64,000 nucleotides of DNA, from the NCBI GenBank assembly GCA_002437665.1, contig DJQW01000001.1:392727-456726 (forward strand), given 5' to 3'. This DNA is from Alphaproteobacteria bacterium UBA6376 (lineage in GTDB: Bacteria > Pseudomonadota > Alphaproteobacteria > Rs-D84). Numbering within the stretch: the stretch's first letter is position 1; every line of letters starts with the position of its first letter. The notes under the pieces were generated by a model, which worked only from the letters and a program-made list of their open reading frames with translations, was not told where the DNA came from and made no database searches. Both the position numbers and the translations under genes were made by a program. This document shows, piece by piece, positions 1 to 57,631 of the stretch.

Positions 1-1314
1 CAATACCAGATCTAATTTCAAATGTGCCATGGTATAACTGGACATCATGATTTCAAACCCGTGCATACGTGGCAACAAATCGTTTTCAACGTAATTCGGC
101 CAAATGCCAGCATTATTCTTGAACTTATCATAAATATAGTTCACTGCGGTTGCTAAAAATGTTCCTGTGCCGGTTGCAGGGTCAAGTAATTGAACACGAT
201 GGTACTCTTTGTCTTCTGCTTTTGCGTGTCCTTGTAAATGGACTTTTTTTATGATTTTTGACTTGTCCGCCAATCCATTTGGTAATTCAAAATCCGTTTT
301 CAATATGTCGTCCATCGCACGGACTATGTAATCAACAACCGGTTGTGGGGTATAATAAACACCACGCATTTTACGCAACGTCTTGTCATATTTGCTTAAA
401 AACGTTTCATAGAAATGAACTATAGGATCGGCTGTCTTGGTTTTACGTCCAAAATCTTTCAAAATATCTGCAACATCAGTATAACTAAAAATGCTTGCCA
501 AACTGTCAACAGACCACACAATACGCTCATCAATATCATTTCCAGCAATATAATCAAACATTTTACGCAAAAACGGCACCGTCTTAGGTATCAGGGTGGC
601 GGCTTCCTGGCGGGTGAAATCATGCATAGTTTTGTCGTGCAAACGTGCAACAAACATACCGTACGCAATCGTTTGTGCATAAATGTCTGCAAATTCTTGT
701 TCTGTCATTGTGCGAATAAGAATCTTTCGGAATGATTCCAGCTGTTCATATAATGATTGGTTTTCTGATTGATCCTTTAATGCGCCTTTTATCACGTCTG
801 CAATCAAACGTGCTTTACCGGCCATCAATTCGGCCAATTTCAATGGTGATTTTATAGTTGCGGTTTTGATGACATAAAAATCTTTTATCAAATCAACCAA
901 TGTTTGATACCGTTCTGGTAACGGTGTAATTGTTTTGCCATCAAATTCAGCTATGCGCACTCTGGCGGTTTCTTTGCCTTCTTGATAAAATCTGAATTCC
1001 AAATAATCTGTATATATCAAATTTGGCAATGCATCCAAATAACGACTTTTTTGTTCTATCTCCCTGTCTGACAAATTATCTAACCGATTAATTCCGATAT
1101 CTTTTGCCTCTATAAAACCCAACACCGCATCACTGCGTCGGACCATAAAATCAGGCGCGCCAAACGTTCCACGCGCCGGTTCATTTATTGCGACTATCCC
1201 CGTTTCAATAGATTCAAGCAATCGTTTCAGGGCGGGACGATAAGAATGTTCTTTTGCGACCCCTGTTTTGAATTCTTTATCTATATCAACCAAATATTCA
1301 CAAGCACCATACAT
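1..1314 (-). CDS. Type IIG restriction-modification enzyme, N-terminal part only (PD-(D/E)xK endonuclease + gamma-class N6-adenine methyltransferase); C-terminus lies beyond window start
   Basis: Minus-strand ORF starting at ATG 1312-1314 (AAGGA RBS 8 nt upstream) and running off the window. Translation shows GAPDFMV...GFIEAKD (PD-(D/E)xK nuclease), then YYTPQPVVDYIV and LLDPATGTGTFL (MTase motifs X/I). Not in the ORF track because there is no stop inside the window. Confidence 0.6.
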   Translation of the reverse strand, partial: MYGACEYLVDIDKEFKTGVAKEHSYRPALKRLLESIETGIVAINEPARGTFGAPDFMVRRSDAVLGFIEAKDIGINRLDNLSDREIEQKSRYLDALPNLIYTDYLEFRFYQEGKETARVRIAEFDGKTITPLPERYQTLVDLIKDFYVIKTATIKSPLKLAELMAGKARLIADVIKGALKDQSENQSLYEQLESFRKILIRTMTEQEFADIYAQTIAYGMFVARLHDKTMHDFTRQEAATLIPKTVPFLRKMFDYIAGNDIDERIVWSVDSLASIFSYTDVADILKDFGRKTKTADPIVHFYETFLSKYDKTLRKMRGVYYTPQPVVDYIVRAMDDILKTDFELPNGLADKSKIIKKVHLQGHAKAEDKEYHRVQLLDPATGTGTFLATAVNYIYDKFKNNAGIWPNYVENDLLPRMHGFEIMMSSYTMAHLKLDLVL

Positions 1315-1348
1315 GAGCCAATCCTTGATGGCCCAATCTGTTTTCTTT

Positions 1349-1371
1349 ATACAGGCAATCTAAGGACCATC
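1349..1371. repeat. Left 23-bp inverted repeat (atacaggcaatctaaggaccatc) of putative invertible promoter segment
   Basis: Perfect 23/23 reverse-complement match to 1453-1475; read directly from the sequence. Confidence 0.85.
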
Positions 1372-1400
1372 TTTTTGCCATAACCATCATTTACATGCTG

Positions 1401-1429
1401 ATTCTACCAGATTTTAACCCGTTTTGCAA
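1401..1429 (-). promoter_or_regulatory. Sigma70-like promoter TTGCAA-N17-TAGAAT inside the invertible segment, currently facing the Type IIG gene
   Basis: Minus-strand -35 TTGCAA (1424-1429), 17-nt spacer, -10 TAGAAT (1401-1406). An AAGGA RBS and the ATG of the methyltransferase gene follow about 90 nt downstream. Confidence 0.55.
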
Positions 1430-1452
1430 TAAAGGCATACTCTGGACATTCT

Positions 1453-1475
1453 GATGGTCCTTAGATTGCCTGTAT
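1453..1475. repeat. Right 23-bp inverted repeat; overlaps last 5 codons plus stop of the recombinase gene
   Basis: Reverse complement is identical to 1349-1371. Confidence 0.85.
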
Positions 1476-2054
1476 GTATCGTCCCAATGTTCTCGGACTA
1501 ACATTTAGTGCCATTGCCACGCGTCTTTTTGATATCCCCATTGCCAACATTTGTTTTGCTAATTTACTCTTGCCGTCCATTTTATGATGCTTGTTTTTGC
1601 TTCCCGTCTGTCGTCCAAGTTGCATGCCCGCCAGTTTTCTACGTTGCAATGCTTCTTTGGTCCTTTGCGCAATCATGTCACGTTCTATCTCTGCGGCCAT
1701 ACCGAATGCAAAGGCCAGTACCTTACTTTGAATTGATTCATTCAAGGTATACCCATCCTTTACACTGTAAACCTGCACTCCACGCTTTAATAGAAATTCT
1801 AATATGCGAAACAGCATGAACAGGCGTCGCCCGAAACGTGACAATTCAGAAATGATTACGATGTCCCCAGGGTGGATATTTTGCATCAAAATACCAAGCG
1901 CACGCTTTTCTGGTTCACGCGTGCCGGATATGCCAGAATCTTCTATATATTTATCTATCCGCAACCCAAGCGCCCCCGCCTTGGATTCAATACCCAGTTT
2001 TTGATTCGCACAATCTTGTTTATCCGTTGAAACCCGTATATAGCCATATATCAC
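1461..2054 (-). CDS. Serine recombinase (resolvase/invertase family, Hin/Gin/Tn3-resolvase-like)
   Basis: 197 aa; N-terminal YIRVSTDKQ catalytic-serine motif, resolvase core, C-terminal HTH (ISKRRVAMALNVSPRTLGRYI). Confidence 0.85.
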   Translation of the reverse strand: MIYGYIRVSTDKQDCANQKLGIESKAGALGLRIDKYIEDSGISGTREPEKRALGILMQNIHPGDIVIISELSRFGRRLFMLFRILEFLLKRGVQVYSVKDGYTLNESIQSKVLAFAFGMAAEIERDMIAQRTKEALQRRKLAGMQLGRQTGSKNKHHKMDGKSKLAKQMLAMGISKRRVAMALNVSPRTLGRYIQAI

Positions 2055-2220
2055 AATAAACTCCTTTGGTTCGTTGTTCTATATGTCGTAGATTTCAGTT
2101 TATTCAAGTAAATAAAGATGGTTTAAGAGTGTTCAGTAACAATACTTTTTTTATCCATCGGCACTTGAAAATAGTGGACTTTTTACCTAGTTAATATAAA
2201 ACATACAAGGATTTAGAAAC

Positions 2221-3684
2221 ATGAAAACAGTTTTAGATTTAAATGCAGAAAAGGCAAAAAATTTTTTTCTGGCAGGGGAAAATTATTTTACGGGGGATTT
2301 GCCTCCATATTTTAAGTTTAATGATGTTTTACAAAAGGCAACTGCGATTTTGCAAAACAATGAGTTTAAGCAAATATATCACAGAAAACCCAATGATGTT
2401 CCAGACATCAATTATGATATAATAATCAATAAAAATGGGGAATACGATTGGCGTAAATTGACGATAATAAACCCCATATTGTATGTAAACCTTGTAAATT
2501 GTATATGCAATGCCGATGCATGGGAAAAAATATGTAATAGGTTTAAAGAATTTAGATCAGACAATCGTATTGTGTGTTCAAGTATACCGGTTGTAAAAGG
2601 TATGCGTAGACATCAAAGAGCGCAACAGATTTCAAATTGGTTGACAGAATTTGAACAAGATTCTGTGAAACAATCGTTAATTTTCTCTCATATGGTATGT
2701 ACGGATATAGTAAATTGTTATTCATCTATATATACTCATTCTATAGCTTGGGCGCTACATGGAGAAGACGTAGCAAAAAACAATAAAACAGATATGTCTT
2801 TCTTAGGAAATATTATAGATGTCGGTATAAGAGACCTTTCATATAATCAAACTAATGGGATTCCACAAGGTTCGGTATTGATGGATTTTATTGCAGAAAT
2901 TATATTAGGCTATATAGATACCTTAATAGCAGAAAAATTAAAGCGAGAGAACATAAAAGATTACAAAATATTAAGATATAGAGATGATTATAGAATATTT
3001 ACAAATAATCCAAAAGACAGTGAAATAATATTAAAAACTATAAATGATGTTTGTCAGCATATAGGTCTAAGATTAAACACACAAAAAACATTCGCCACAG
3101 ATAAAGTTATTTCAAAAGCGATAAAAAAAGATCGGTTTGATATACCCATAAGTTTCGTGCAACCAAATTATAAAATATTTTTACAATTGTATAAAATGTC
3201 TGAAGAACAGCAGAATTCAGGAGCATTACAAAGTACGTTATCGGCATTAAATAAAAAAATAAAGATAACAAAAAAAGATAAATCAGAACTATTGATAAGT
3301 ATAATTACAGACATCGCATATAATGTCCCAAAAGTTATACCACAAGCATTTACAACTATTAGCCATATTTTAAGAAAAGAACCCAGAGAAATGCAGTTGG
3401 AATACATTACAAAAATCAAGAACAAGTTCTCTAGAAAAGCCTATACAAGTTTTGTTCATATATGGTTGCAAAGATTGAGTATAAATATTGATTATCAGAT
3501 TGAATACGAACCAGATATTTGCAAGTTTGTTAAAGATAAATCTATCGAATTGTGGAATTTTAGTTGGTTAAAAAAAGAATTTTTAGACCAATTAAAACCA
3601 TATGACATAGTAAATGCATATTTGCTTAGACGTGCAAAATTACCAATTGAAAGCAAAGAAACGAATATTTTTGAATACAATTAG
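2221..3684 (+). CDS. Stand-alone reverse transcriptase of the Abi/UG (defence-associated) class, with a C-terminal alpha-helical extension
   Basis: 487 aa. RT motifs: A (MVCTDIVNCYSSI), B' (NGIPQGSVLMDFIAEIIL), C (ILRYRDDYRIF, YxDD), D (IGLRLNTQKT). No endonuclease, maturase or integrase domain is evident. Confidence 0.7.
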   Translation: MKTVLDLNAEKAKNFFLAGENYFTGDLPPYFKFNDVLQKATAILQNNEFKQIYHRKPNDVPDINYDIIINKNGEYDWRKLTIINPILYVNLVNCICNADAWEKICNRFKEFRSDNRIVCSSIPVVKGMRRHQRAQQISNWLTEFEQDSVKQSLIFSHMVCTDIVNCYSSIYTHSIAWALHGEDVAKNNKTDMSFLGNIIDVGIRDLSYNQTNGIPQGSVLMDFIAEIILGYIDTLIAEKLKRENIKDYKILRYRDDYRIFTNNPKDSEIILKTINDVCQHIGLRLNTQKTFATDKVISKAIKKDRFDIPISFVQPNYKIFLQLYKMSEEQQNSGALQSTLSALNKKIKITKKDKSELLISIITDIAYNVPKVIPQAFTTISHILRKEPREMQLEYITKIKNKFSRKAYTSFVHIWLQRLSINIDYQIEYEPDICKFVKDKSIELWNFSWLKKEFLDQLKPYDIVNAYLLRRAKLPIESKETNIFEYN

Positions 3685-4138
3685 GTTTATTTTTACTCTA
3701 TTTAGGAATATTTTGTTTGGTCGCCCACGAACATTATCCCGAACCATTTGCATAAAAAGGCAAAGCGTGCCTGATATGTTGTTGCGCGAACTTGTTTTGC
3801 TTGTTTCAGCTGATAGACAGCATTTCTTTATAAATTGATTAACGACCGATGAAAATTTGGTAAGCCCAGAATGACTATGTTACTTCAATTAAGTGCTATC
3901 CGCACATCCTTCCATCAGGAACTACCCCTGTCTTAATGCCCTGAAACATTTACAGTTAACAAAAACGTCTAATGCAGAAATTGTCAAATGAGATTTACTC
4001 CCGTCAAAAATGTATCATTTTGTTGTTTCAGATACTCTTTATTAACCTTGTACTGCTCTGGAAATTGCTGAAACTCTCTTTTCATTCGCTCTACCCCTGC
4101 CGAGCAAAGATACGCCGGAGTATTGCGCCCCTTTTTGT

Positions 4139-4692
4139 TCAAAGGTGGAATAGACGGATTAAACAGAGCCTCTTGAACATTAACATTGAACAATTCTTAA
4201 CCACATCATTTGTTAGCTGGATAAAGTAAGGAATACGAACCACTTTGTAGCCAAGCTTCATATATAATTTAGTATTTTTTTCATCCCTTAAAATGATATC
4301 AGGGTTTGTGTAATGGTGTATCCCATCAAACTCAACAATTAACTTTAATGTCTCACTTCGATAATCGGGCCGCTTCATGTATTTGTTTCTGCCTACATTT
4401 CCCAATGATTTATCATGAATCCAATCTTGCACATCAGGAAATATGATAGCCAAATACTCTTCAAACCAGTTCTGTGCAACCCGGTGTCTGCATCAAAACC
4501 CGCAACCTGTTTTTCATTAAGTTTTAGATTAAAAGCATAAGACAAAACGCATTCCCCAATATCGCCAAGCATTCTGCCATCAACAGCAAAAGTTTTATGG
4601 ACTTTTTCATGCATGCCCACTGTAGTGGCATGAAGTTTCAGATACTCTCCTAATATAAAATTGGCTTGCTCTTCTGTTACCGTTAAGCTCAT
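4139..4692 (-). pseudogene. DUF559-type (PD-(D/E)xK-like) endonuclease-domain gene, apparently frameshifted
   Basis: ORF 4139-4453 carries LIVEFDGIHHY...KLGYKVVRIPY (DUF559 signature). Overlapping upstream ORF 4393-4692 is in another frame, with a stop just before the DUF559 frame resumes. A third fragment, 3984-4193, may also belong. Confidence 0.35.
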
Positions 4693-4904
4693 TTTATCAC
4701 ATCTTTTTCAAACTACTGTAACACGCCTCCCAGCATCATACAGAGAAAGAAACACCAGCACAAACAAAAACACCAAATTTGTTAAACACACTTTACAAAA
4801 GTGTTATTTTTGACAATTATGAAAAATAAAATAACATAATGGCCGAATTGACTTTCTACCCCGAAATTGCTACCATTATCCGATGATAATAATGGGGCAA
4901 AAAC

Positions 4905-7391
4905 ATGACGTTTGATAAATTACGTGATGACAACGAGGCATATGCTCGTTTAAAAATAAATCAGAAGTTGATTGACGCGGGCTGGTTTTTAACAGATGCC
5001 CATGAACATAAACGCAATGTGAATGTTGAGCAACGGGTTGATTCTGGCTTTGCTGACTATGAAATGTTAGATTCAAACGGCTTTCCTTTGTGTGTTATTG
5101 AAGCCAAAAAACCATCAATCAACCCATTAAGTGCAAAAGAACAAGCACGCAGATATGCAACAGAACACGGTATTCGCTTTGTTATTTTATCAAACGGTGA
5201 AATTTATTATCTGTGGGACATAAAAACGGGTAATCCACAAATCATAACCCAAATACCAACCCAAGAATCTTTGGAAATGCGCTTTGGTTTTGACCCAAGC
5301 ACCAAAGATATAATGAAAGAAAACATTATTCCGGAATATGTTGCATTACAAAAGAATCCGCGCTTGTTGGATGTGCCTGAATATCAAAACCCAAAGACTC
5401 GTGGCGCTTATTGTTGGAATAATGGTTTACGAATATTGCGTGATTATCAGCTTGGTGCCGTTCATGCAGTGCAGCAAGCTATTGCAGATGGTAAAGATAG
5501 ATTCTTGATTGAAATGGCGACTGGATTGGGCAAAACATTGACGGCTGGTGCAATAATTCAAATGTTATTACGCACCGGACACGCGCATAGGGTTTTATTC
5601 CTTGTTGACCGTATTGAATTGGAACAGCAAGCGTGGAAAAACTTTAATGATTATCTGTGTGATTTTGTAACCGTAATTTATAAAGAAAATACAAAAGATT
5701 GGCATAAAGCGGATATTGTTGTTTCAACCATCCAAACATTGATGGCCAGTGATAAATACAAACATTTTTCACCAACTGATTTTGATTTTATCATATCAGA
5801 CGAAGCGCACCGTTCAATAGGTGGTAACAGCCGCGCAGTATTTGAATATTTTATCGGTTACAAATTGGGATTAACTGCGACACCACGTGATTACATCAAA
5901 AATGTGGATATTGATAAAATCAAGGTTAATGACCCAAAAGCACTTGAACGCAGATTGTTATTGGATACATATAAAACATTTGGTTGTGAAAGCGGTGAAC
6001 CAACATACAAATATACAATGATTGACGGTATTAAAAATGGTTATCTGGTTGCCCCAATGGCTATTGATGCGCGCACAGATATAACCACAGAAATGTTATC
6101 CGAAAAAGGTTATCACGCGATTGGTGTTGACGATAATGGCGAGGATGCAGAAGCCGATGTTGTTGTGAAAGATTTTGAAAAACGCTTTTTCAATGACAAT
6201 ATAAACGCGGTATTTTGCAAAGCGTTCTTGGAAAACGCAGAACGCGACCCAATCAGTGGCGAAATTGGTAAAACATTGGTATTTTGCGTTAGTCAATCAC
6301 ACGCTGCAAAGATTACCCAGATGTTGAATGAATTGGCTATGCAGGCATTCCCAGGCAAATATAATAGTGATTTTGCAGTCCAGGTTACCAGCAATGTTCA
6401 AAATGCACAGCAAATGACAAATCAGTTTATGACGGATAATAATAATCTGGGCGGTAAATCAACATTTTTGGAAGGTTATGATACATCAAAAACGCGTGTA
6501 TGTGTAACCGTTGGAATGATGACGACTGGTTATGATTGCAGCGATTTATTAAACATCGTATTTATGCGTCCGGTATTTTCACCAACTGATTTTGTGCAAA
6601 TGAAGGGGCGCGGAACCCGTAAATATACATTCAAGTATGTTGACGCAGATAAGAATGAAACCAGAAAAGACAAAGAAAGATTCAAGATGTTTGACTTCTT
6701 TGGCAACTGCGAATATTTTGAAGAAAAGTTTGATTACGGTCAGCAATTAAAATTACCTGCATTAACAAAAGGCGCTTTGGCAGGGCCAGGACAACAACGC
6801 ACATTTACAACCTTAACATCCGAAGAGATAACGAAACTGATTCAAATGGAAACGCTTAATATCCCAGACAACGGAATGCGTATAGACCGCGAATTCTGGG
6901 GCAATTTCCAAAAGACAATCAGTGCTGATACAGATATTAAAAATGCGGTTGAAAACAGCGATTGGGATTATGCTGTATCATTGGTTAAAGACAGATACGA
7001 AAATAAACCTGAATTATATCCTAATCTGGAACGGATTAAAAAAGCGACAAAATTGGACCGCCGTTTGTCCTGGCGCGAAATATTGGAACATATATTCGGC
7101 TTGCTGCCCCGATTTAAGACACGCGATGAAATGTTAGAAGATGAATGCGATAAATACATATCTATTGTTAAACCTGACGCTGAAATTGTGCCGTCTGTTA
7201 AAAATTTCATAAAATTGTATGTCACAGACAACACATTTCGTGATATAATAGAAAAGCAGGAGTATCCGCGCCTTAATGCTGAAATTCCTGGCTTTAGTAT
7301 GCAGGATTTGAAAATGATGGGCAAAGACATCCGCGAAAATTTACCTGAATACATCAAAGAAAACATAGTATTGAATAAATATATGGGGTAA
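4905..7391 (+). CDS. hsdR: Type I restriction enzyme R subunit (HsdR)
   Basis: 828 aa. N-terminal nuclease motif (DSGFADY...IEAKKP), SF2 helicase motifs MATGLGKT, DEAH, LTATP, QMKGRGTR. Confidence 0.8.
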   Translation: MTFDKLRDDNEAYARLKINQKLIDAGWFLTDAHEHKRNVNVEQRVDSGFADYEMLDSNGFPLCVIEAKKPSINPLSAKEQARRYATEHGIRFVILSNGEIYYLWDIKTGNPQIITQIPTQESLEMRFGFDPSTKDIMKENIIPEYVALQKNPRLLDVPEYQNPKTRGAYCWNNGLRILRDYQLGAVHAVQQAIADGKDRFLIEMATGLGKTLTAGAIIQMLLRTGHAHRVLFLVDRIELEQQAWKNFNDYLCDFVTVIYKENTKDWHKADIVVSTIQTLMASDKYKHFSPTDFDFIISDEAHRSIGGNSRAVFEYFIGYKLGLTATPRDYIKNVDIDKIKVNDPKALERRLLLDTYKTFGCESGEPTYKYTMIDGIKNGYLVAPMAIDARTDITTEMLSEKGYHAIGVDDNGEDAEADVVVKDFEKRFFNDNINAVFCKAFLENAERDPISGEIGKTLVFCVSQSHAAKITQMLNELAMQAFPGKYNSDFAVQVTSNVQNAQQMTNQFMTDNNNLGGKSTFLEGYDTSKTRVCVTVGMMTTGYDCSDLLNIVFMRPVFSPTDFVQMKGRGTRKYTFKYVDADKNETRKDKERFKMFDFFGNCEYFEEKFDYGQQLKLPALTKGALAGPGQQRTFTTLTSEEITKLIQMETLNIPDNGMRIDREFWGNFQKTISADTDIKNAVENSDWDYAVSLVKDRYENKPELYPNLERIKKATKLDRRLSWREILEHIFGLLPRFKTRDEMLEDECDKYISIVKPDAEIVPSVKNFIKLYVTDNTFRDIIEKQEYPRLNAEIPGFSMQDLKMMGKDIRENLPEYIKENIVLNKYMG

Positions 7392-7395
7392 CGGT

Positions 7396-9288
7396 ATGTT
7401 AGACGCCAGAACAAAACAAACCATTGATAATGCCTGCGATACATTGGTGGGTAAAGTGCCAAGTCCACAGACACAGGTTGATATTATTACAACCGCGCTA
7501 ATTTATAAGTTTATGGACGATATGGATTTGGACGGCCTTGAATTGTCGGGCAAGCGTACATTTTTTGCCGGCGATTTAGAAGCATACGCGTTTTCAACCG
7601 TTGTTAATACCAAGGGTAATCAAGAACGGATGAACCTGTATTTGACAGGGCTTGAAAAGGTGCAGACCGCCAAATCGGTGCCTGAATTATTTCGCCGTAT
7701 TTTCAAAGAAGCACTTATTCCATTTCGCGATCCTACAACATTTGCATTGTTTCTAAAAGAAATCAACGAATTATCATACGATGATTCCGAGACAATAGGT
7801 GATGCTTTTGAATACCTTTTGAATAAAATGGCGACTGCAAAAAATGCGGGGCAGTTCAGAACGCCACGTAATATTATTGATTTCATCGTTGATGTTGTGA
7901 ATCCTACTAAAAATGATACTATTTTAGATCCTGCCTGCGGAACGGCCGGATTCTTGATTTCTGCATACAAGCACATTACACAAAATCGTAAATTGACACC
8001 AGATGAATTAAAACAGATTACGAATAATGTTGTTGGAATGGATATTGATCCAACTATGGTGAAATTAAGTCTGGCCAATCTGTATTTGCATAAATTTGAA
8101 CAACCAAATATTTATGAATATGATACTTTGTCGAATGATACACGTTGGGGTGACCGATATGATGTTATTTTAGCAAACCCACCATTCATGACCCCAAAGG
8201 GCGGAATTACACCGCATAAGCGATTTGCCATAAACGCCAACCGCAGTGAAGTTTTGTTCGTCGATTATTTTATGGAGCATTTGACAATAAACGGGCGTGC
8301 TGGCTTTGTTGTCCCAGAGGGTATTATATTCCAAACCGCAAACGCATATAAAGATTTGCGTAAAATGATGTTGGATGGTTATTTATACGCGGTTGTATCT
8401 TTACCATCTGGCGTATTCAATCCGTATGCTGGGGTAAAAACATCAATACTATTCTTTGACCGCGCGTTTGCAAAACAAAACAACAATATATTATTTGTGC
8501 GTGTTGATAATGACGGCTTTTCTTTGGGCGCACAACGCACACCGATCAAACAGAACGATTTACCAGAAACGTTAAAGATTATCAATGAATACCGCGATGG
8601 TAAAGATGTATCAGGTTATGAACGCGCAATGGTTGTGTCCAAAGAACGCATAGCAGAACAAAATTATGACCTAACCGCTGCAAAGTATGTTGAGAAAGAA
8701 ATTGTTCAATGTAATTATGGAATGGTTAGATTGGGTGATGTTTGTGAATTGTTAAATGGATATGCATTCAAAAGCGAATTGTATACGGATACTGGTATTC
8801 GTGTGATGCGTATAACAAATGTGCAGAAAGGCGAAATTGTTGATGATAACCCAAAATTTTATCCGATAGAAAAACAATCCGAAATACAAAATTACATGTT
8901 ACATGAAAATGACTTGCTTGTATCTTTAACGGGTAATGTTGGGCGTGTTGGTTTGTTGCCAAAGAATTTATTACCTGCAGGATTAAATCAACGGGTTGCA
9001 TGTTTAAGACCGGATACAGATAAAATTTTGAAGGGATATTTGTTTGCTATATTAAATCAGGATAAATTTGAAAAAGATTGTATTGAATCGTCTGGCGGAA
9101 TTGCGCAAAAGAATTTAAGCACAGTATGGTTACAAAATTACACAATCCCACTTCCGTCATTGGATGTGCAACAACAGATTGTGGATGAAATTGAAAATAA
9201 GCAATCAGCAATCAACCACGCACGCAAAATCATTGAAAATCTAGAGAGAGAGAGAGAGAATATTTTGCCTGCCTTCTTGACAGTATAG
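7396..9288 (+). CDS. hsdM: Type I methyltransferase HsdM fused in frame to an HsdS half (target-recognition domain 1 + conserved coiled-coil)
   Basis: 630 aa. N6-MTase motifs (DPACGTAGFL, NPPF). Typical HsdM C-terminus (SKERIAEQNYDLTAAKYV) runs directly into an HsdS-like TRD (VRLGDVCELLNGYAFKS...). Ends just after an (AG)8 tract. Confidence 0.8.
   Translation: MLDARTKQTIDNACDTLVGKVPSPQTQVDIITTALIYKFMDDMDLDGLELSGKRTFFAGDLEAYAFSTVVNTKGNQERMNLYLTGLEKVQTAKSVPELFRRIFKEALIPFRDPTTFALFLKEINELSYDDSETIGDAFEYLLNKMATAKNAGQFRTPRNIIDFIVDVVNPTKNDTILDPACGTAGFLISAYKHITQNRKLTPDELKQITNNVVGMDIDPTMVKLSLANLYLHKFEQPNIYEYDTLSNDTRWGDRYDVILANPPFMTPKGGITPHKRFAINANRSEVLFVDYFMEHLTINGRAGFVVPEGIIFQTANAYKDLRKMMLDGYLYAVVSLPSGVFNPYAGVKTSILFFDRAFAKQNNNILFVRVDNDGFSLGAQRTPIKQNDLPETLKIINEYRDGKDVSGYERAMVVSKERIAEQNYDLTAAKYVEKEIVQCNYGMVRLGDVCELLNGYAFKSELYTDTGIRVMRITNVQKGEIVDDNPKFYPIEKQSEIQNYMLHENDLLVSLTGNVGRVGLLPKNLLPAGLNQRVACLRPDTDKILKGYLFAILNQDKFEKDCIESSGGIAQKNLSTVWLQNYTIPLPSLDVQQQIVDEIENKQSAINHARKIIENLERERENILPAFLTV
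9243..9259. repeat. (AG)8 dinucleotide simple-sequence repeat at the hsdM-S/hsdS' junction
   Basis: agagagagagagagaga read directly. It lies about 30 nt before the stop of the HsdM-S ORF (ends 9288). The downstream half-S frame is open through the tract. Confidence 0.8.
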
Positions 9289-9305
9289 ATTACAACGAAG
9301 TAAAA

Positions 9306-9800
9306 TTGGGCGATGTTGTAAAGGTTGATTGGGGAAATACCAATTTAACAAAAGCCGCATATGAAGAAAATGGCAAATATCTTGGTGTCAGTGCTGCAGG
9401 TTGTGACGGGCGTATGTCAAATTTTGAACACGATGTGGGAGTTAGTGTTTTATCTGCGATAGGTGCAAACTGTGGAAGGGTTTTTTATCCGGATGAAAAA
9501 TTTACGGCGATTAAAAATACTATAACTTTCACACCGAATAGAACAGTTGTTGTGCCAAAATATTTATTTTTTGTTATGCGGAACAATCAATTACCACAGC
9601 GTGGCGGAGCACAACCATTTATGGCGAAAGCGGATGTTGAATCATATATTATACCACTTCCATCCATTGACGACCAGAAGCGTATAGTTGCAAAATTGGA
9701 AGCAGAACAGGAAATCATTGATACAAATAAACGCTTGATTGATTTGATGCAAGAAAAAATCAACCAAGTTATAAAACGTATATATAGGTGCAATATGTAA
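9306..9800 (+). CDS. hsdS: HsdS half-subunit (target-recognition domain 2 + second conserved coiled-coil)
   Basis: 164 aa, TTG start. TRD followed by LPSIDDQKRIVAKLEAEQEIID...; its frame is open upstream through the (AG)8 tract. Confidence 0.65.
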   Translation: MGDVVKVDWGNTNLTKAAYEENGKYLGVSAAGCDGRMSNFEHDVGVSVLSAIGANCGRVFYPDEKFTAIKNTITFTPNRTVVVPKYLFFVMRNNQLPQRGGAQPFMAKADVESYIIPLPSIDDQKRIVAKLEAEQEIIDTNKRLIDLMQEKINQVIKRIYRCNM

Positions 9801-9802
9801 TT

Positions 9803-10492
9803 ATGACTGAATATTCTGATGATAATCCAGTTTATGTATTAGCGGATTTTTTGCCGCCACTTGATGAAACTGTTGCTTATCTATATAAATACAAAGATGA
9901 TTTTGCATATCATTATGAACGAGAATTTTATAATCTTGCGTTATTCTCGTATCACCAATTGTATATGGCAATATTGCATATGTATTTGTTAAAGTTCCAC
10001 AGGATGGATATAAAAATCGCTAGTGCCTGCAGGCAGAATCGTCCAATTATAAGTGTTTTATCTCCTTCTTTTTATTCTGATGTTATGGATGAAAAAGCTC
10101 GCATTGGGTTGTTTGGTCGTAGAATTTCAACCGAAATTAAAAAGAAACATGTAGAATTAGTTCAACAAAGGGATAGAATTGCGCATTTTACTGGGAATGT
10201 GTTAACCAAAGAACAAATTGACGAACATATATCAATATCGGCGGTTGTGTTAAAAGAAATTCAATCTGTTGCTTTTTATGAATTACTTTTGCATCCAACA
10301 GACCGTTTCGGGGTTCAAGTAAACGATATAGTGACAGAAATAGACAAGTCGGAAAGGTTTTCAAAAATTTCATATCTGATTCAGGACTTCTATTTATCTA
10401 AAAATGATATAGATTTTTTACAGAGATATCCTGATTTTTGTTTTTGGAATGAATATATACAGGAAAATGGTTATGAGCCAATTGAAAATTAA
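9803..10492 (+). CDS. Hypothetical protein with HEPN-like Rx4H motif (Abi-like candidate)
   Basis: About 229 aa, directly after hsdS'; RDRIAHF motif; no other recognisable domain. Confidence 0.35.
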   Translation: MTEYSDDNPVYVLADFLPPLDETVAYLYKYKDDFAYHYEREFYNLALFSYHQLYMAILHMYLLKFHRMDIKIASACRQNRPIISVLSPSFYSDVMDEKARIGLFGRRISTEIKKKHVELVQQRDRIAHFTGNVLTKEQIDEHISISAVVLKEIQSVAFYELLLHPTDRFGVQVNDIVTEIDKSERFSKISYLIQDFYLSKNDIDFLQRYPDFCFWNEYIQENGYEPIEN

Positions 10493-10613
10493 TGCCTGTA
10501 TTTATATTAAGGAACACAAGATTTAAATTTTTCTATCAAAATTTAGGAATAAAATACAAGATAATACCACATATTTCAACCACGGGTTGAAACAAGCGGC
10601 GAATTTCCGATAT

Positions 10614-24010: not shown

Positions 24011-25249
24011 TTATTTGCAAACCGCGGTGTATGGCGCAAATGATTCTTCGGTATCAATTTCCCCATCGCCACAGTCCAGACAGTTAAATCGTCTGTTCTG
24101 GTTATGTGTGCGGTCAATCGGAACATTCTTGCCCGACATTTCTGGAATGTTGCCGGCATAATTTTTGTTTGGAAAACCGAAATAGAACGCACGGCTGCGC
24201 CCACTGCATTCGCGTGTTGTGGCGTAACAACTGGGGTCATTCAGTTTTGATGTATCGGGCACACAATATGACGTGCATGTGTCGCTGTCCAATATCATTT
24301 TTTCGCACGGTGTGCATGACGTTTGGTTCGCGCGCAGGGTCGCGCCAACCGAACCATATATTGCACCGCTGGTAAAACGGCTGCACTTTGTTATGTTTTC
24401 CCCCTTGGACGCGTCTGCCACGCATTCCCATTCCAATGTGTCATAGTTCAAACGTGCCACCATATTATCAGGACACGATTTTGTCGGAAATGGATTGATG
24501 CATTCCCACACGTCGTCAACAATAACCGCGGTCTGTTGCGATGCGCACAACGGTTTTCTGGATTCGTCCGCCACGCATTCCAATAAATCAGAATCCCAAA
24601 TCATATCGCCACCACAGTCGGTCTTGGTATTTATGCCAACGCATTGCCAGCGTCCAAATCGATACGTTTTAATTGTCCCCGTCGGGCATTTAATGTCCGT
24701 GGTGGTGTTTGTTGTGCTGCTGCTGGCGATATTTGTAATATCGTATTGCGTCATGTACACCAGTTGACCACTGTCCAATTTCATCGTTTTCATAATGGTC
24801 TTGGGCACGGTGTACTTTGAACCAATCGCCCCCGACACAATTTTTCCGTCCATCAAAATCCCAAACGTGCCGGCGTCAGAATAATATTGTTCCAGTATTT
24901 CAAACATACTGTTGTATTCATCTGGGTTCAACGCGCCAGTTGCGGTGATAATATAACTGTATGTGGGCTTTTTATTTTTAACGATTTTGCATTCGGTTTC
25001 CTTCATACTGGCATTCATACAGAACAGCCGACTGACAATCTGGTTCTGGGCGACGCAAACATCATCAAATGTTGTACCCTTTATCTGGGCGTTGTGAACG
25101 GCGGCCGCGCATTGGGCAATCGCGTGCAAATCGGCGCGCTGGGCGGCATATTCGGTTTCAATTTCTGGGACGCGGACGCTGGGGCTGTCGATGATATAGT
25201 ACCCCAACATAAATATAGCCACCAATACCATCAGAAAAATATTCATCAT
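24011..25249 (-). CDS. Secreted Cys/Thr-rich protein (family member 1)
   Basis: 412 aa; N-terminal hydrophobic segment, more than 25 Cys, T-rich tracts, CxxC/CxPC spacing. Confidence 0.55.
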   Translation of the reverse strand: MMNIFLMVLVAIFMLGYYIIDSPSVRVPEIETEYAAQRADLHAIAQCAAAVHNAQIKGTTFDDVCVAQNQIVSRLFCMNASMKETECKIVKNKKPTYSYIITATGALNPDEYNSMFEILEQYYSDAGTFGILMDGKIVSGAIGSKYTVPKTIMKTMKLDSGQLVYMTQYDITNIASSSTTNTTTDIKCPTGTIKTYRFGRWQCVGINTKTDCGGDMIWDSDLLECVADESRKPLCASQQTAVIVDDVWECINPFPTKSCPDNMVARLNYDTLEWECVADASKGENITKCSRFTSGAIYGSVGATLRANQTSCTPCEKMILDSDTCTSYCVPDTSKLNDPSCYATTRECSGRSRAFYFGFPNKNYAGNIPEMSGKNVPIDRTHNQNRRFNCLDCGDGEIDTEESFAPYTAVCK

Positions 25250-35639: not shown

Positions 35640-35873
35640 ATATGAACCCACGGGGACGTGTGGGTTCGGGACTTAGAAAATCCCATAAGAAAGCGGTGCA
35701 TTGCACCGAATGTCCGACGTATGAAAATGGTCGGCGCATATTGCGCCTGTTATTTTCTGTATCCCGACATATTTGGTCGGGAAGCGGTGGTTATATATCG
35801 AAAGCCATCGGGTCATTCTTTCTTATGATTTTTCTAACTTCCCGACCACCATACTCTGGTGGTTTTTGTTTGG
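35640..35873 (+). promoter_or_regulatory. Structured leader element copy C, ending in a terminator 18 nt before the Cys-rich gene 35891
   Basis: Stem1 TCCCGAC(35762-68)/GTCGGGA(35776-82). GTCGGGAAG(35776-84) can pair with CTTCCCGAC(35838-46). Terminator GACCACC(35844-50)/GGTGGTT(35858-64)+TTTTGTTTGG. Further 5' hairpins GAACCCACGGGG..GTGGGTTC and GGTGCATTGCACC. Confidence 0.55.
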
Positions 35874-35890
35874 TTGCACAGCAATAGGGG

Positions 35891-36337
35891 GTGTTAGTGA
35901 TAAATAATAAAATTTGTTTTTATATAATTTCTGCATTTGTGTTATGCGGGGGGCAATCCGCCGATGCGGCTGCCTGGTTGAACGGGTGCACAGAATCCAA
36001 GTATTGCATATGTGGAAATAGGATGGTCGGGGCAACTCAGAATAAATATTGCTGCCCAGAAACGAAAACATCAACAACGATAACATGTCCATCTGGTTGG
36101 ACGAAAGAAACATATTCTGGCATACAAATTCCAGAAGCACCCACTAAATACGTCTGTACCCGCGCTGACGAAACAACATACAACGCGTTATCGCATTCGT
36201 ATGTAAAAACGACGTATTCCACATGTTGGGCGGAATCCACCACCACGACCGAAACACGCTATTGCCCAACGACAACGGATTCGTGTGGTTTGAAACTTGA
36301 CTGTAAACTGGGTGACAGCCCAATCTTGGATTTATAG
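35891..36337 (+). CDS. Secreted Cys/Thr-rich protein (family member 2)
   Basis: 148 aa, GTG start, signal peptide, 14 Cys, T-rich. Confidence 0.5.
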   Translation: MLVINNKICFYIISAFVLCGGQSADAAAWLNGCTESKYCICGNRMVGATQNKYCCPETKTSTTITCPSGWTKETYSGIQIPEAPTKYVCTRADETTYNALSHSYVKTTYSTCWAESTTTTETRYCPTTTDSCGLKLDCKLGDSPILDL

Positions 36338-36355: not shown

Positions 36356-36682
36356 ATGAAAAAATTATTTTTATTGATTGTTATATTATTATGTGTGTCC
36401 GCGCGTGCTGCGGTAACAACGCCCCCAGATACAGATGCGCAGTGCCTGCCTGCTACAGTCACAACTGTTGCATGTGGGGCGGGGTACTACTTGAAAAATT
36501 CGCGCTTGGGGTGCGCGCGTTGTCCGGAAATTGGTAAAAATTCTGCGGGCAAGGTCATATACGGCACAACGCCCGATAAAAATACAGGTGGCATTGAATC
36601 ATGTTATGCACCATCGGGTGACTACATGGATGATACAGGCGGGTTTACGTTTACCAATCAATGCCAATATTCGTTAAATTGA
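36356..36682 (+). CDS. Secreted Cys-rich protein (family member 3; C..GYY...C..CP motif)
   Basis: 108 aa; signal peptide; VACGAGYYLKNSRLGCARCPEIGKN motif shared with 48911-49729. Confidence 0.5.
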   Translation: MKKLFLLIVILLCVSARAAVTTPPDTDAQCLPATVTTVACGAGYYLKNSRLGCARCPEIGKNSAGKVIYGTTPDKNTGGIESCYAPSGDYMDDTGGFTFTNQCQYSLN

Positions 36683-36758
36683 TTAAGCAATAACTTTATC
36701 ACTCATTCACTTTATCACTGTTACACTAATAAAAAACGCCCCATTTGGGGCGGTTTTA

Positions 36759-45625: not shown

Positions 45626-46363
45626 TTATTGCGCTGATTCTGAACTTTCTGTGGGGTTCATTTTGGCGTACTCGCGGCGGATTACGTCCATTATGCCCGA
45701 TGCGCGCATATGGCTGGAAAATGCGGTACAGTTGTTAAATTCTGTTTCCAGTGTGCCCCAGCCGGCGTATTCCCAATCAATCAGTCCCGCCACACGCATC
45801 GTGCGCGTGTCAACAATGATATTATTGCAGATGTCGTTGTGATTCCACCCGTCGCCCGCGCCACGTTGCAGGTCGCGAATTTCCGCCGGTCGCGCGTGAT
45901 GTACGGCGGTAATAAATTCCGCCAGTTGCCGTCCCCACAGTTCGCGATTGCGCGCAATGGTGCGTGTTGGCAACTTGTTCATATTGTGCCCGCGAATAAA
46001 GTTGTATTTATAGAACACATATTGGCCCGCATGTACGATTTCGATTTTTGGAATTGCCAATGGCGATATGTGTTCAAACGCATCCGTAATCCGCTTTTCC
46101 CGCATGATGCGTTCGGCGGGCACACTGGTGTCCAAGAATTTACGTGTTTTGAATACGTATTTGTTGTCGACGATAAAACCGATGTTCCATCCGCCCTTTA
46201 TCATTTTTACATGGGTAAAGCGCAGTTCGGGTTGTGCGGCACGCAGTGCACGATATTTGTCGCGCCAATCGAACAGGCGTTTATGGCGAATGCGGTGACG
46301 CACATTGCGATCAGGTATAAAACAGACCAAAATATCACAGATTTCAAAGAACAATTTCCACAT
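45626..46363 (-). CDS. Kinase of the APH/LPS-kinase (Kdo/WaaP/choline-kinase) fold
   Basis: 245 aa; GWNHNDICNNIIVD (HxD catalytic loop) and IDWEYAGWG (DxD-like) motifs. Confidence 0.55.
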   Translation of the reverse strand: MWKLFFEICDILVCFIPDRNVRHRIRHKRLFDWRDKYRALRAAQPELRFTHVKMIKGGWNIGFIVDNKYVFKTRKFLDTSVPAERIMREKRITDAFEHISPLAIPKIEIVHAGQYVFYKYNFIRGHNMNKLPTRTIARNRELWGRQLAEFITAVHHARPAEIRDLQRGAGDGWNHNDICNNIIVDTRTMRVAGLIDWEYAGWGTLETEFNNCTAFSSHMRASGIMDVIRREYAKMNPTESSESAQ

Positions 46364-46426
46364 GTGCGCACCCTTGTTAAATTTGTGAATAATGGTATTG
46401 AAAAAAACGAAAAAAACAAGTACTTT

Positions 46427-48646
46427 ATGGGCATGTTCAAAGCGGGCGATATTGTAAAAGTTTTGATACCAAATGTTGCGAATGCCGGATACGACTATCG
46501 TTTAACGGTGGCGGCTGACATTGGTCAATTTGTTGCGTGTCGCGTCATGAACCGCCCATACGTTGGTGTGGTTTGGGGCATTGGGGATTCGGGGCTGCCC
46601 GCGGAAAAAATCAAAGACATTATTACGGTCTATGATGCGCGTCTGGCGGTTACTGATTTGCAATGGATTGCCAAGATGTCAACGTGGACACTGATGTCAT
46701 TGGGGGCGGTATTGCGATTGATTGTAAATGTGCCCGACGCATTTTTACCGCCCAAGATGGAACAACTCTATGAATTAAATATTGCAGACGGTGTGCGTAT
46801 GACCGCACCGCGTCTGGCGGTTGCCGATGCATTTGCGTCAAACGATGGCGACCCAATGTCGGCATCTGATGTCCAGAATATCGCACACGTCAGTGCCGCC
46901 GTCGTCCGCACAATGATAGGGCAGGGTTTGCTTGTTCCCAGAGAGCAAAGAGCATCCGTCTCCGCTGCGCTCCGCCGCGATATAATATATCACGATTGTG
47001 GTAATATAAAATTAAATGCCGAACAGCAATCGGCGGCGGACAAAATTGGTGCGGCGATTGACGCGGGTGGTTTTTCGGTGCACCTGTTGGACGGTATCAC
47101 GGGCAGTGGTAAAACACAGGTTTATTTTGATGCCGCATGGCGTGCGTATTCGCGCGGTGCGTCAGTATTATTGATGATGCCAGAAATCGCATTGACGGCG
47201 CAGTTTATGCATCGTTTTGCTGCGCGATTTGGTGCCGCCCCCGTCGTGTGGCACAGTAATTTAACCGCCGCGCGTCGTCGTGAAATCTGGCGCGGGGTAT
47301 TAAACGGCGAAATTCGTATGGTCGTCGGCACGCGCAGTGCATTGTTCTTGCCGTGGCAAAAATTGGGTCTGATTGTCGTGGACGAAGAACACGATACATC
47401 ATATAAACAGGAAGATATGGGGAATTATCACGCCCGCGACATGGCGGTCTTGCGTGCCAAGATTGCGGGATTTCCCGTTGTACTGGCCAGTGCGACGCCA
47501 TCGGCGGAAACCCTGCAAAATGTTGCGCTGGGGAAATACCAGTTATTGCGCCTGACATCGCGATTTGGTGGCGCGCAAATGCCAAAAATTGAAACAATCG
47601 ATTTGCGTGAAAATCGCCCCGACACGTACCAGTTGCCATCGGATGATGCAGATTCCGCGCCACGAACGGGCTATCTGTCCACGCCATTGTGCGATGCGAT
47701 TTCAGAAACACTGGCGGCGGGCCGTCAAATAATGCTGTTTATAAATCGCCGCGGTTTTGCCCCGATTGTTCAGTGTAAAAAATGCGGCTGGGTTGCCCAG
47801 TGTCCGGATTGCAGCGTCGGCATGACGTATCACCGCGCGATGGGCAAATTGCTGTGCCATATGTGTGGGCGCACCGCGCCAATGCTGGCCAAATGTCCCG
47901 ATTGCGGCGGCGATGTGTCGACGCGTGGTGCGGGCTTGGAAAAGATAGCAGAGGAGGTGTCCGCCCGTTTTCCATCGGCGCGGGTCGTATTGGTGTCCAG
48001 TGATACAATTTCATCGCGCCAGTCATTGGAACGCTTGGTCGCAAAAATGGAAAACGGCGAAATCGACATCGTCATCGGAACGCAGATTCTGGCCAAGGGT
48101 CACCATTTTCCGAACCTGACACTGGTTGGGGTTGTGGACGCCGATATGGGGTTGTTCGGTACGGATTTCCGTGCCGCCGAACATACGTTTCAGCAATTAT
48201 TTCAGGTTGCCGGTCGTGCCGGTCGTGGCGAATTCCCAGGGCGGGTATTGATGCAAACGTACCAGCCCGACCACCCAGTTTTGCGTGCGATATGTGCGGG
48301 CGATCGTGATGCGTTTATGGCGTCCGACATGGCGGCGCGCCGTGCGGCGGGAATGCCACCGTTTGGTCAACTGATTGCGGTTGTTGTAGAGGGACAAAAG
48401 GAATCCGTATTAAAGGGGTTCTGTGATGCATTGGCGGCGGCCGCGCCGATTGCCGCGGGCGTAAAAATCATGGGCCCAATCGCGGCGGGCGTGTATCAAA
48501 TCAGAAATTGGTATCGTATGCGTTTCTTGGTTGCGGGCGATACAACAACAATGTTGCAACCGGTTGTATCGCATTGGCTGGCCAAGGTAAAACAACCCGC
48601 CAACATTCGGGTCAAGGTTGATGTAAACCCACAAAACTTTATGTGA
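46427..48646 (+). CDS. priA: Primosomal protein N' (replication restart helicase PriA)
   Basis: Walker A GITGSGKT, DEEH, Cys-rich Zn-binding insert (CKKCGW...CPDCS...CHMCG...CPDCG). ATG 46427 chosen; the 45710 extension in the track overlaps the divergent kinase gene. Confidence 0.85.
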   Translation: MGMFKAGDIVKVLIPNVANAGYDYRLTVAADIGQFVACRVMNRPYVGVVWGIGDSGLPAEKIKDIITVYDARLAVTDLQWIAKMSTWTLMSLGAVLRLIVNVPDAFLPPKMEQLYELNIADGVRMTAPRLAVADAFASNDGDPMSASDVQNIAHVSAAVVRTMIGQGLLVPREQRASVSAALRRDIIYHDCGNIKLNAEQQSAADKIGAAIDAGGFSVHLLDGITGSGKTQVYFDAAWRAYSRGASVLLMMPEIALTAQFMHRFAARFGAAPVVWHSNLTAARRREIWRGVLNGEIRMVVGTRSALFLPWQKLGLIVVDEEHDTSYKQEDMGNYHARDMAVLRAKIAGFPVVLASATPSAETLQNVALGKYQLLRLTSRFGGAQMPKIETIDLRENRPDTYQLPSDDADSAPRTGYLSTPLCDAISETLAAGRQIMLFINRRGFAPIVQCKKCGWVAQCPDCSVGMTYHRAMGKLLCHMCGRTAPMLAKCPDCGGDVSTRGAGLEKIAEEVSARFPSARVVLVSSDTISSRQSLERLVAKMENGEIDIVIGTQILAKGHHFPNLTLVGVVDADMGLFGTDFRAAEHTFQQLFQVAGRAGRGEFPGRVLMQTYQPDHPVLRAICAGDRDAFMASDMAARRAAGMPPFGQLIAVVVEGQKESVLKGFCDALAAAAPIAAGVKIMGPIAAGVYQIRNWYRMRFLVAGDTTTMLQPVVSHWLAKVKQPANIRVKVDVNPQNFM

Positions 48647-48739
48647 TTTTTTAATTTTTCACTGGATTTAATTCGTATATTTGTTTAGCATACCTGTTGA
48701 CACGGGGTGTTCCTGTGTCGGGGATTCAAGACCCCATGA

Positions 48740-48880
48740 AACCAGCGTCCACGTGACGATAAAAACTCCAACGCCTATTGCGGGTTGGAGGGCTGCGAAT
48801 ACATTGAATAAGCACGCTATAACTGGTTTTATAGTCTTGAACCTCCAACCACCTGAATTTCTTGGTGGTTTTCTTTTGTT
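48740..48880 (+). promoter_or_regulatory. Structured leader element copy A, ending in a terminator 30 nt before the Cys-rich gene 48911
   Basis: GCGTCCACGTGACGATAAAAACTCCAAC... Stem1 CTCCAAC(48766-72)/GTTGGAG. GGTTGGAGG(48783-91) can pair with CCTCCAACC(48842-50). Terminator AACCACC(48847-53)/GGTGGTT(48864-70)+TTCTTTTGTT. Confidence 0.55.
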
Positions 48881-49729: not shown

Positions 49730-49756
49730 AAAAAACGCCCCGTTTAGGGGCGGTTT

Positions 49757-57190: not shown

Positions 57191-57220
57191 CGGTATTCCT
57201 TTTGTGCGTTTATACAACAA

Positions 57221-57410: not shown

Positions 57411-57631
57411 CTGCAAATACAATAAAAAAACGCCGCCGGTGTTGCCCAGCGGTGTTTCCGAATGCCCTGAAAGGAAGGAAAGGAGAAAAAGAAATGGGCA
57501 TTCTAAACTGTTAAAAGGGTTGGGGCCCAGAGTCCAGAGGAGAGAGAATGTAGGAGGGAGTCTGAATCCCTGAACCCCGCGTCGCTGGGGTTGCCCCCTT
57601 TGACGAATCGAAATGTAATACAATTTTTGTT

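Follow-up and report, generated by a model that had tools for sequence, protein, structure and literature searches.

Families of variable surface proteins encoded by many genes are known from Giardia (VSPs), Mycoplasma (Vsp/Vlp lipoproteins), and Anaplasma (Msp2). Cysteine repeats of the Ephrin-receptor-like/TNFR type are known mainly from eukaryotes. Here we describe a family of predicted exported Cys/Thr-rich proteins, together with the leader RNA in front of many of its genes, starting from four genes (A to D) in a 64,000-nucleotide (nt) stretch of DNA from Alphaproteobacteria bacterium UBA6376 (contig DJQW01000001.1, positions 392,727 to 456,726; this whole stretch is called the window below). 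The original prediction had grouped the four genes as one family of secreted Cys/Thr-rich proteins scattered through the window. Two of them, C and D, belong by sequence comparison to such a family. It resembles the surface protein families mentioned above in its scattered paralogues per small genome, its predicted export, and its fast divergence on a conserved scaffold or terminus, but differs from them in that no evidence of machinery for phase or antigenic variation (invertible promoters, repeats, gene conversion) was found here and that what its genes have in common is a terminator-bearing RNA leader.

The source organism belongs to Rs-D84, an uncultured order that includes the genus Candidatus Enterousia. 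Rs-D84 genomes are smaller than 1 Mb and lack respiration and most biosynthesis, and the organisms are predicted to be obligate symbionts or parasites that depend on other cells (PMC12306168; see also PMC11257099). The best explanation of our data, in which we have reasonable confidence, is that a Sec-exported, lineage-specific family and its B-type partner proteins form a repertoire that would be switched by a shared leader RNA and would act outside the cytoplasm.

The module family and its partner gene

All four open reading frames (ORFs) are present, and C and D end in a related segment, called the module below:

24011-25249, (-) strand: gene A, ORF of 412 amino acids (aa)
35897-36337 (146 aa) or 35891-36337 (148 aa), (+) strand: gene B, ORF
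36356-36682, (+) strand: gene C, ORF of 108 aa, signal peptide and module at residues ~37-108 (nt 36464-36679)
48911-49729, (+) strand: gene D, ORF of 272 aa, C-terminal module at residues ~204-272 (nt 49520-49726)

For B, the GTG codon at 35897 is the likelier start, judged from gene callers and the invariant N-terminus MINNK of its orthologues. The richness in both residues is real for all four proteins: A, B, C, and D contain 5.3, 8.8, 6.5, and 8.1% Cys and 9.5, 16.2, 11.1, and 15.4% Thr, respectively, compared to means of ~1.5% Cys and ~6.0% Thr for the remaining long ORFs of the window. A six-frame scan of the window revealed no further plausible gene with high Cys content and a hydrophobic N-terminus. 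Signal peptides had been assigned to all four proteins. By a simple heuristic, Sec-type signal peptides (K/R, hydrophobic core, AxA) are predicted for B, C, and D, while the N-terminus of A is an uncharged membrane helix. Of all ORFs in the window, C and D alone contain the motif C..GYY...C..CP (C..GYY......C..CP in the original prediction, which ascribed it to two of the genes), each of them exactly once, at residues 40 and 207, respectively. Scanning six frames with C..G[YFW][YFW]...C..CP likewise returned C and D only.

All-versus-all blastp aligned a single pair: residues 40-108 of C and 207-272 of D share 30% identity over 70 residues, reaching to both C-termini. The same region was aligned with an E-value of 1.5e-5 when profiles of the orthologues (13 sequences for C, 7 for D) were compared by hhalign. 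Both proteins also match further members of the family described below by phmmer, C with E-values of 1e-28 to 1e-15 (P0147, P0151, and others) and D with 1e-43 to 1e-31 (P0139-P0141) and ~1e-13 (consensus-type members). A and B did not match any of 146 C/D family representatives by phmmer even at E≤10, and their profiles reached hhalign probabilities of only 0.15-0.3% against the module or D. Similarity beyond composition was found for the pair C and D, and the other pairs showed none. Judged from these alignments, C and D are paralogues of one family, and A and B are homologous neither to them nor to each other; the proposed family of four shrinks to two of its members.

Beyond the window, a word-indexed search returned 6 close orthologue clusters for D and 12 for C. 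An exhaustive HMMER search with a combined D and C profile against 1.84 billion representative sequences detected 355 clusters at E≤1e-3. The listed matches are 73-371 aa long (median 206), with median contents of 8.2% Cys and 12.2% Thr, and the heuristic finds a signal-peptide-like N-terminus in 112 of 144 representatives. In almost all listed proteins the module match covers the last ~70 residues. The module itself comprises ~68 residues at the extreme C-terminus with the pattern Y.C..GYYG...C..CP...G..GTT...G.T.IT.CY.P.G....D..G....T..C.Y..-end and the consensus xYRCAxGYYGxSTNGTSGCxRCPSSGGVYGTTAxAGSTSITSCYIPSGxSxSDSxGTxTYTxNCYYxN. The N-terminal part of the members is variable, Cys/Thr-rich, and sometimes nearly absent. 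C and D both combine a profile match and the C-terminal module with a signal peptide predicted by the heuristic. C represents a short subfamily with little beyond signal peptide and module, and D has, in addition, two C..C..G...C.N...C repeats in its interior (residues 66-93 and 129-157).

All named sources of the family are uncultured gut Alphaproteobacteria (Candidatus Enterousia and kin). We also scanned genomes with two exact peptide patterns, corresponding to 8 consensus-like sequences, so that the counts per genome are lower bounds. This confirmed 108 sites, and all 77 loci that were kept lie in metagenome-assembled genomes (MAGs) of uncultured gut Alphaproteobacteria from roe deer, yak, rabbit, chicken, and Hadza human samples, all of species other than that of the window. 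One 0.97-Mb MAG contains at least 13 family loci, two others contain at least 10 each, and the family makes up 1.5% or more of the gene count. Copies identical to C and D are present on many metagenome contigs and in MAG GCA_002452175.1. A phage origin was rejected, as 50,697 phage records gave no tblastn match to the family. As far as sequence and signal-peptide prediction can tell, C and D represent a large, lineage-specific, multicopy family of exported proteins that is scattered over Rs-D84 genomes, and a scattered family of exported Cys/Thr-rich proteins does exist.

The last cysteine lies exactly 4 residues from the protein end in 95 of 146 members, usually as C-Y-Y-x-x (5 residues in both C and D). 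Such a strict C-terminal position, in proteins that start with a Sec signal and vary strongly in their N-terminal regions, is also what one would expect of a sorting or anchoring tag that takes variable N-terminal cargo to the outer surface by a machinery specific to the lineage, following the logic of type IX secretion system (T9SS) C-terminal domains (CTDs) or of CTERM signals. The T9SS sorting domains of Bacteroidota likewise combine a Sec signal and a variable passenger with a C-terminal domain of ~70-100 aa. But they belong to another phylum and show no sequence match, whereas the module is Cys-rich and also occurs in proteins that consist of little else: 26 of the 146 members, C included, are ~100 aa long or less and would be tags without cargo. 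Moreover, C, D, and three relatives did not match any NCBIfam sorting domain, and no candidate machinery was identified. We regard a sorting tag, in which the module would not be the functional part, as possible but doubtful.

The motif had been likened to eukaryotic TNFR/furin-type repeats. The module shares the spacing C..G[YF][YF]...C..CP...G.T...C with PF07699 (Ephrin_rec_like, GCC2_GCC3) and the CXXC repeats of furin, TNFR, and VSP proteins, but adds a second half of its own (CY.P.G....D..G....T..C.Y..-end) and is fixed at the C-terminus; its carriers are, by prediction, small bacterial Sec substrates and not eukaryotic receptors. D scores 15.1 bits against PF07699 (E 0.02), below the gathering threshold of 23.1, and C has no Ephrin_rec_like match in Pfam. 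Among 148 family members, 16 match PF07699 at E≤0.01 (best E 1.4e-9); P0166 (38 bits) and P0262 (30.7 bits), the only two checked against the threshold, exceed it. Other Pfam matches of the 148 members are Giardia VSP (3), Furin-like_2 (3), and TNFR_ELAPOR1 (2). Because some relatives pass the PF07699 threshold, the hint at TNFR/furin repeats holds for the family, but not for C or D themselves. As part of the explanation preferred above, and with the same reasonable confidence, the first half of the module may be a derived Ephrin-receptor-like/TNFR-type Cys repeat.

Gene B carries a signature of its own, CC..CP.GW..C.R..Y..Y..C, behind its predicted signal peptide. Its orthologues are 72-77% identical with all cysteines invariant, and synteny with C is kept. 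In other genomes, ten B-like proteins (94-134 aa) with a signal peptide and with conserved CC, CP.GW, C.R, and Y..Y..C positions are encoded directly behind leaders; B matches 3 of these 10 by phmmer (E 7e-8 to 2e-6, in a small database). A short C-type ORF (91-122 aa) follows the B-type gene in 11 of 11 loci, the window included, where B likewise stands between a leader and the short C-type gene. Since all B-type genes are followed in this way, leader, B-type gene, and short C-type gene form a conserved bicistronic unit, and it is by this operon structure, as read from the sequence, and not by homology that B is tied to the C/D family. In a related species (L013:3338-5220), a DNA methyltransferase gene and a gene for a 332-aa protein, likely a restriction-modification pair, lie between parC and the B leader. 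This insertion leaves leader, B, and C intact, indicating that the leader belongs to B and C and not to parC.

We then compared the window with the syntenic loci L011-L015 of related species, using Nei-Gojobori estimates of dN and dS. B, C, and D are 72-82% identical at the nucleotide level, the leaders 93-96%, and the flanking genes 88-99%, except for an 81-aa ORF beside D (79% in L014). dN ranges from 0.09 to 0.26 for B, C, and D, compared to 0.00-0.05 in seven of eight neighbours (parC, rpmG, an MCRA-family gene, priA, a VirB11-like ATPase gene, a 187-aa ORF, and an FKBP gene), and dN/dS from 0.13 to 0.39, compared to 0.00-0.08 in the same seven. The 81-aa ORF is also fast (dN 0.02-0.20, dN/dS 0.14-0.40). 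Amino acids thus change 10-20 times faster in B, C, and D than in the neighbours, with all covered cysteines invariant among the orthologues. Such a pattern would be typical of a scaffold that stays fixed while its surfaces change fast. The idea that the leader is far more conserved than its surroundings was rejected: with 93-96% it falls into the range of the flanks (88-99%), and the unusual divergence is that of B, C, and D. Hypervariation driven by a diversity-generating retroelement was rejected as well, the sole reverse transcriptase (RT) of the window being AbiP2; template/variable repeats were not searched for.

The leader RNA and its genes

B and D had been placed behind an attenuator-like leader. 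Both stand directly behind a copy of it, C is the second gene of the B operon, and a third copy precedes a regulator gene; the leader copies, this gene, and the terminators behind C and D are:

35643-35871, (+) strand: leader copy 1, B-subtype, nhmmer E 3.9e-59, ending ~25 nt before the B start
36737-36752: bidirectional terminator hairpin between C and the convergent rpmG, from a terminator scan of both strands
48698-48877, (+) strand: leader copy 2, D-subtype, nhmmer E 1.8e-29, ending 34 nt before the D start
49736-49752: bidirectional terminator hairpin 3' of D, from a terminator scan
56843-57190, (-) strand: XRE-family helix-turn-helix (HTH) regulator gene, 115 aa, with matches to Pfam HTH_3/HTH_19 and NCBIfam HTH subfamilies
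57216-57388, (-) strand: leader copy 3, D-subtype, found by sequence reading, regular expression, and nhmmer (E 9.2e-23), upstream of the XRE gene

The gene orders are parC, leader, B, C, rpmG and priA, leader, D, 81-aa ORF, VirB11-like ATPase gene; the surroundings of B-C and D are ordinary housekeeping genes. The leader is an RNA of 180-230 nt, and the ~250 nt of non-coding sequence before B and D ends in CCACC-loop-GGUGGUUUU. Copy 1 has a minimum free energy of -100.9 kcal/mol (z -5.8 versus shuffles); its fold comprises a hairpin at the 5' end, long-range helices as well as internal hairpins, and, at 35844-35864, a terminator-like hairpin with a U-tract behind it. Copy 2 (z -5.2 versus shuffles), with its terminator-like hairpin CCACC-loop-GGUGGUUUU at 48849-48872, folds into the same architecture. 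Copy 1 is 93.5-94.1% identical to its counterparts in three related species, where B and C reach 74-82%, and copy 2 is 93-96% identical across species, where D reaches 72-79%.

The covariation statistics come from an alignment of 31 D-subtype leaders, the first two rows of which are copies 2 and 3. Its architecture consists of a 5' hairpin P1, long-range helices P2 and P3 closing the molecule, internal hairpins P4 and P5 (CUCCUGA/UCAGGAG), and an invariant terminator. Of the alignment cells, 94.9% are paired, and both partners change in 24 of the 45 pairs. For covariation, the alignment scores 0.464, compared to 0.173 for shuffled alignments, none of 500 of which reaches the observed value, while slid controls stay at or below 0.085. 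The 3' arm of P5, UCAGGAGG, can alternatively pair with CCUCCUGA, which overlaps P2 and the 5' arm of the terminator. This alternative helix (columns 152-159 with 215-222) is 95.8% paired, and column 153 covaries with both of its alternative partners, columns 138 and 221. In the three leader subtypes (CUCCUGA, CUCCAAC, UCCCGAC), all three segments change together. As predicted from the alignment, the arrangement is the classical one of anti-antiterminator, antiterminator, and terminator. The predicted termination site is the GGUGGUUUUU hairpin; the terminator CCACC-loop-GGUGGUUUU is invariant, and 20-35 nt separate the end of its U-tract from the start codons. In the window, the U-tracts are at 35865-35874, 48873-48880, and, on the (-) strand, 57220-57212. 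Immediately 5' of P1 there is a conserved TATAAT that resembles a -10 box.

In promoter, structured RNA, and terminator with U-tract, the leader is like trp-type attenuators and riboswitches (1:2 / 2:3 / 3:4), and it also matches their logic of mutually exclusive antiterminator and anti-antiterminator, here with three-way covariation. In contrast to the known examples, it precedes a paralogous family of predicted secreted proteins instead of a metabolic operon, and it has no Rfam match: with Rfam 15, only 4 tRNAs were detected in the whole window at the gathering threshold, and scans of three leaders by E-value returned nothing relevant. An assignment to the T-box or another Rfam family was rejected, because there are no matches and no T-box features. 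Inspection of the alignment revealed no conserved start codon or frame of a leader peptide after the Shine-Dalgarno-like GGAGG. With its covariation-supported structure and a terminator at the ORF that competes with an antiterminator, the leader deserves to be called attenuator-like, and it looks like a conserved, previously undescribed structured RNA resembling a transcription on/off switch.

Upstream of copy 3, at ~57435-57600 on the (-) strand, we noticed a promoter-like TTGACA...TATTAC, behind which come GC-rich hairpins (~150 nt) and a strong terminator, CACCGCTGGGCAACACCGGCGGCGTTTTTTT. No Rfam family matches this element, which is a candidate small RNA gene.

By nhmmer, 90 leaders were detected in the window and the loci that had been found through the module. 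A leader stands directly upstream of 68 of 100 family ORFs, ending ~20-35 nt before the start codon. The 87 leader-adjacent ORFs comprise 65 family members, ~11 B-type genes, 3 XRE regulators, and a few other secreted proteins. For a sample that starts from the leader, a metagenome collection was searched with the 3' motif of one leader subtype alone. It contained 54 loci with 46 complete downstream ORFs, 35 of which are C/D- or B-type (30 with the module, 5 B-type); the rest encode mostly other Cys-rich proteins with a signal peptide. HTH genes similar to the XRE gene of the window are found behind leaders in L056 and probably L023, and the XRE gene is a candidate member or regulator of the leader regulon. 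In L035, L060, L043, and the metagenome loci L095, L098, L106, L112, and L122, leaders also stand before genes for a PAP2-like membrane protein, for a 216-aa secreted protein, and for several other Cys-rich proteins with a signal peptide. As the module profile missed these leader-linked Cys-rich proteins, the regulon may include further divergent families. The covarying leader before family genes in many genomes strongly suggests their co-regulation, in line with what the original prediction had proposed.

Alternatively, the leader could be a promoter/5'-untranslated block that was carried along when the genes duplicated, or a small RNA gene in its own right that has its own terminator. Most leader-linked genes are paralogous, so that co-duplication could explain part of the association, and the predicted minimum-energy fold is indeed the terminator state. 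We nevertheless consider this unlikely: compensatory changes in many helices argue for selection on structure and not for recent copying, the leader also precedes non-homologous genes (B-type, XRE, other secreted proteins), the 20-35 nt between U-tract and start codon leave no room for a separate promoter, and the conserved alternative helix overlaps the terminator.

Gene A and other features of the window

Gene A has 530 homologues, and the 120 listed are all ~410 aa long and 57-93% identical, Candidatus Enterousia included. The AlphaFold2 (AF2) model (pLDDT 68) starts with a transmembrane helix, followed by a long helix and a well-predicted alpha/beta domain (residues ~29-168), and continues with four C..W.C beta-hairpin repeats and a Cys-rich C-terminal part. 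A Foldseek search of the model against the PDB gave nothing significant, with weak EGF-like and TcpB hints. The long helix and alpha/beta domain may weakly resemble the type IVb pilin fold, and A was compared with type IVb pilins and minor pilins (CofA, TcpA, PilS, R64-type PilM, TcpB/CofB). Its N-terminus, M(M)NIF[IL]M[IV]LVA.FM.G[FY]Y, is invariant among 46 homologues, all of which lack the short basic leader, the Gly at -1, and the Glu at +5 of a class III signal peptide. No copy of the leader RNA lies upstream of A. It is apparently a separate, conserved, single-copy membrane-anchored envelope protein outside both the family and the leader regulon.

None of the four proteins matches a PADLOC or NCBIfam family; a role of A to D in a defence system was rejected, as they have no PADLOC match. 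A defence island is located elsewhere in the window, in a low-GC segment at 1-10500 (30-39% compared to ~47%). It contains the full-length AbiP2-type defence RT (2221-3684, PADLOC E 2e-169; the window has no other RT) as well as a type I restriction-modification system with HsdR (4905-7391), an HsdM-S fusion (7396-9288), and HsdS (9306-9800).

Convergent to D, the VirB11-like ATPase gene (50036-50995, (-) strand) scores 146.7 bits against TIGR02788, below the cutoff. It adjoins the 81-aa ORF (49757-50002, (-) strand), and no other type IV secretion system genes are present in the window. On the other side of D, priA (45626-48646) encodes 760 or 978 aa depending on the assembly. Because the long form overlaps an opposite-strand gene for a 245-aa APH-like protein, the 978-aa ORF is probably over-extended at its 5' end. 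A glycosyltransferase gene of the Glyco_transf_92 family, which is known mainly from eukaryotes, lies 2.5 kb from D (52252-53214, (+) strand). Were the Thr-rich exported proteins O-glycosylated, this gene might be of relevance.

A proposed repertoire of exported proteins under a common switch

According to the explanation we prefer, most C/D- and B-type genes would be transcribed from their own promoter through the 180-230 nt leader, in which anti-antiterminator, antiterminator, and terminator would compete, and some signal would set read-through of the whole repertoire at once. The XRE-type regulator gene carries the same leader. The products, surface-bound or released, would meet partner cells, the host, or phages, and such contact outside the cytoplasm would explain their fast diversification on a fixed cysteine scaffold. 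The proteins are probably disulfide-bonded. From the export signals, the fast evolution, and the predicted partner-dependent lifestyle, we infer a role at the surface or in the interaction with partner or host. We likewise infer the final location of the proteins and the direction and signal of the leader switch. More speculatively, and with only a slim chance of being correct, the leader could be an orphan riboswitch or attenuator class that acts as the master switch of a variable surface repertoire, used by a partner-dependent gut alphaproteobacterium of reduced genome for attachment to or evasion of partner cells, host, or phages, with an Ephrin-receptor/VSP-like cysteine module acquired from or mimicking eukaryotic (protist or animal) surface proteins.

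Several points weigh against this explanation. The signal peptides of the family are heuristic predictions. Gene-wide dN/dS stays below 1, so that positive selection is not demonstrated, and relaxed constraint gives the same numbers. C and D both fall outside PF07699 by the Pfam criterion, a search of solved structures with the module profile yielded, at best, thyroglobulin type-2 repeats at a non-significant E-value of 0.17, and the AF2 model of D from a 12-sequence alignment (pLDDT 35) is too poor to judge fold or disulfides. The lineage is anaerobic and lacks a respiratory chain, which bears on how periplasmic disulfides would form. About one third of the family ORFs have no leader directly upstream, some of them being second genes of operons. 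Finally, the loci L016-L092 were picked by the protein module, a selection bias that the leader-seeded sample partly offsets.

Two further alternatives assign the proteins a different function. High Cys content, export signals, and a reduced-genome lineage would also fit disulfide-cross-linked structural proteins of the envelope, such as OmcA/OmcB of Chlamydia. But structural envelope proteins are usually conserved and low-copy, whereas this family is multicopy, variable in length, and 10-20 times faster than its neighbours, and no Pfam or NCBIfam match to Omc families was found, which makes a structural role quite improbable. Small, exported, Cys-rich, fast-evolving proteins from multicopy genes could also be secreted antimicrobial or toxin-like peptides resembling bacteriocins or defensins, which would serve competition among gut microbes. 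We judge this very improbable, as no adjacent immunity, transporter, or maturation genes were found in the window or the sampled loci, where the B-type gene is the only recognised partner, there is no bacteriocin match in PADLOC or NCBIfam, and many members exceed 200 aa. That all four genes form one homologous family deserves practically no credence, as their common Cys/Thr-rich composition and hydrophobic N-termini are outweighed by the failed profile and phmmer comparisons of A and B, by the constant length, different architecture, and apparently single-copy, conserved nature of A, and by the separate family signature of B.

The explanation of a leader-switched, exported repertoire would have consequences for the biology of the lineage. 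Rs-D84 and Enterousia are widespread in human and animal guts, and an exported, fast-evolving family is an obvious candidate for their interface with other cells. With this family, the cysteine repeats of the Ephrin-receptor-like/TNFR type would gain a bacterial branch. The leader would add a class of structured cis-regulatory RNA from a lineage poorly covered in RNA family databases; its on/off state could be read in existing metatranscriptomes, and its signal is open to biochemical search.

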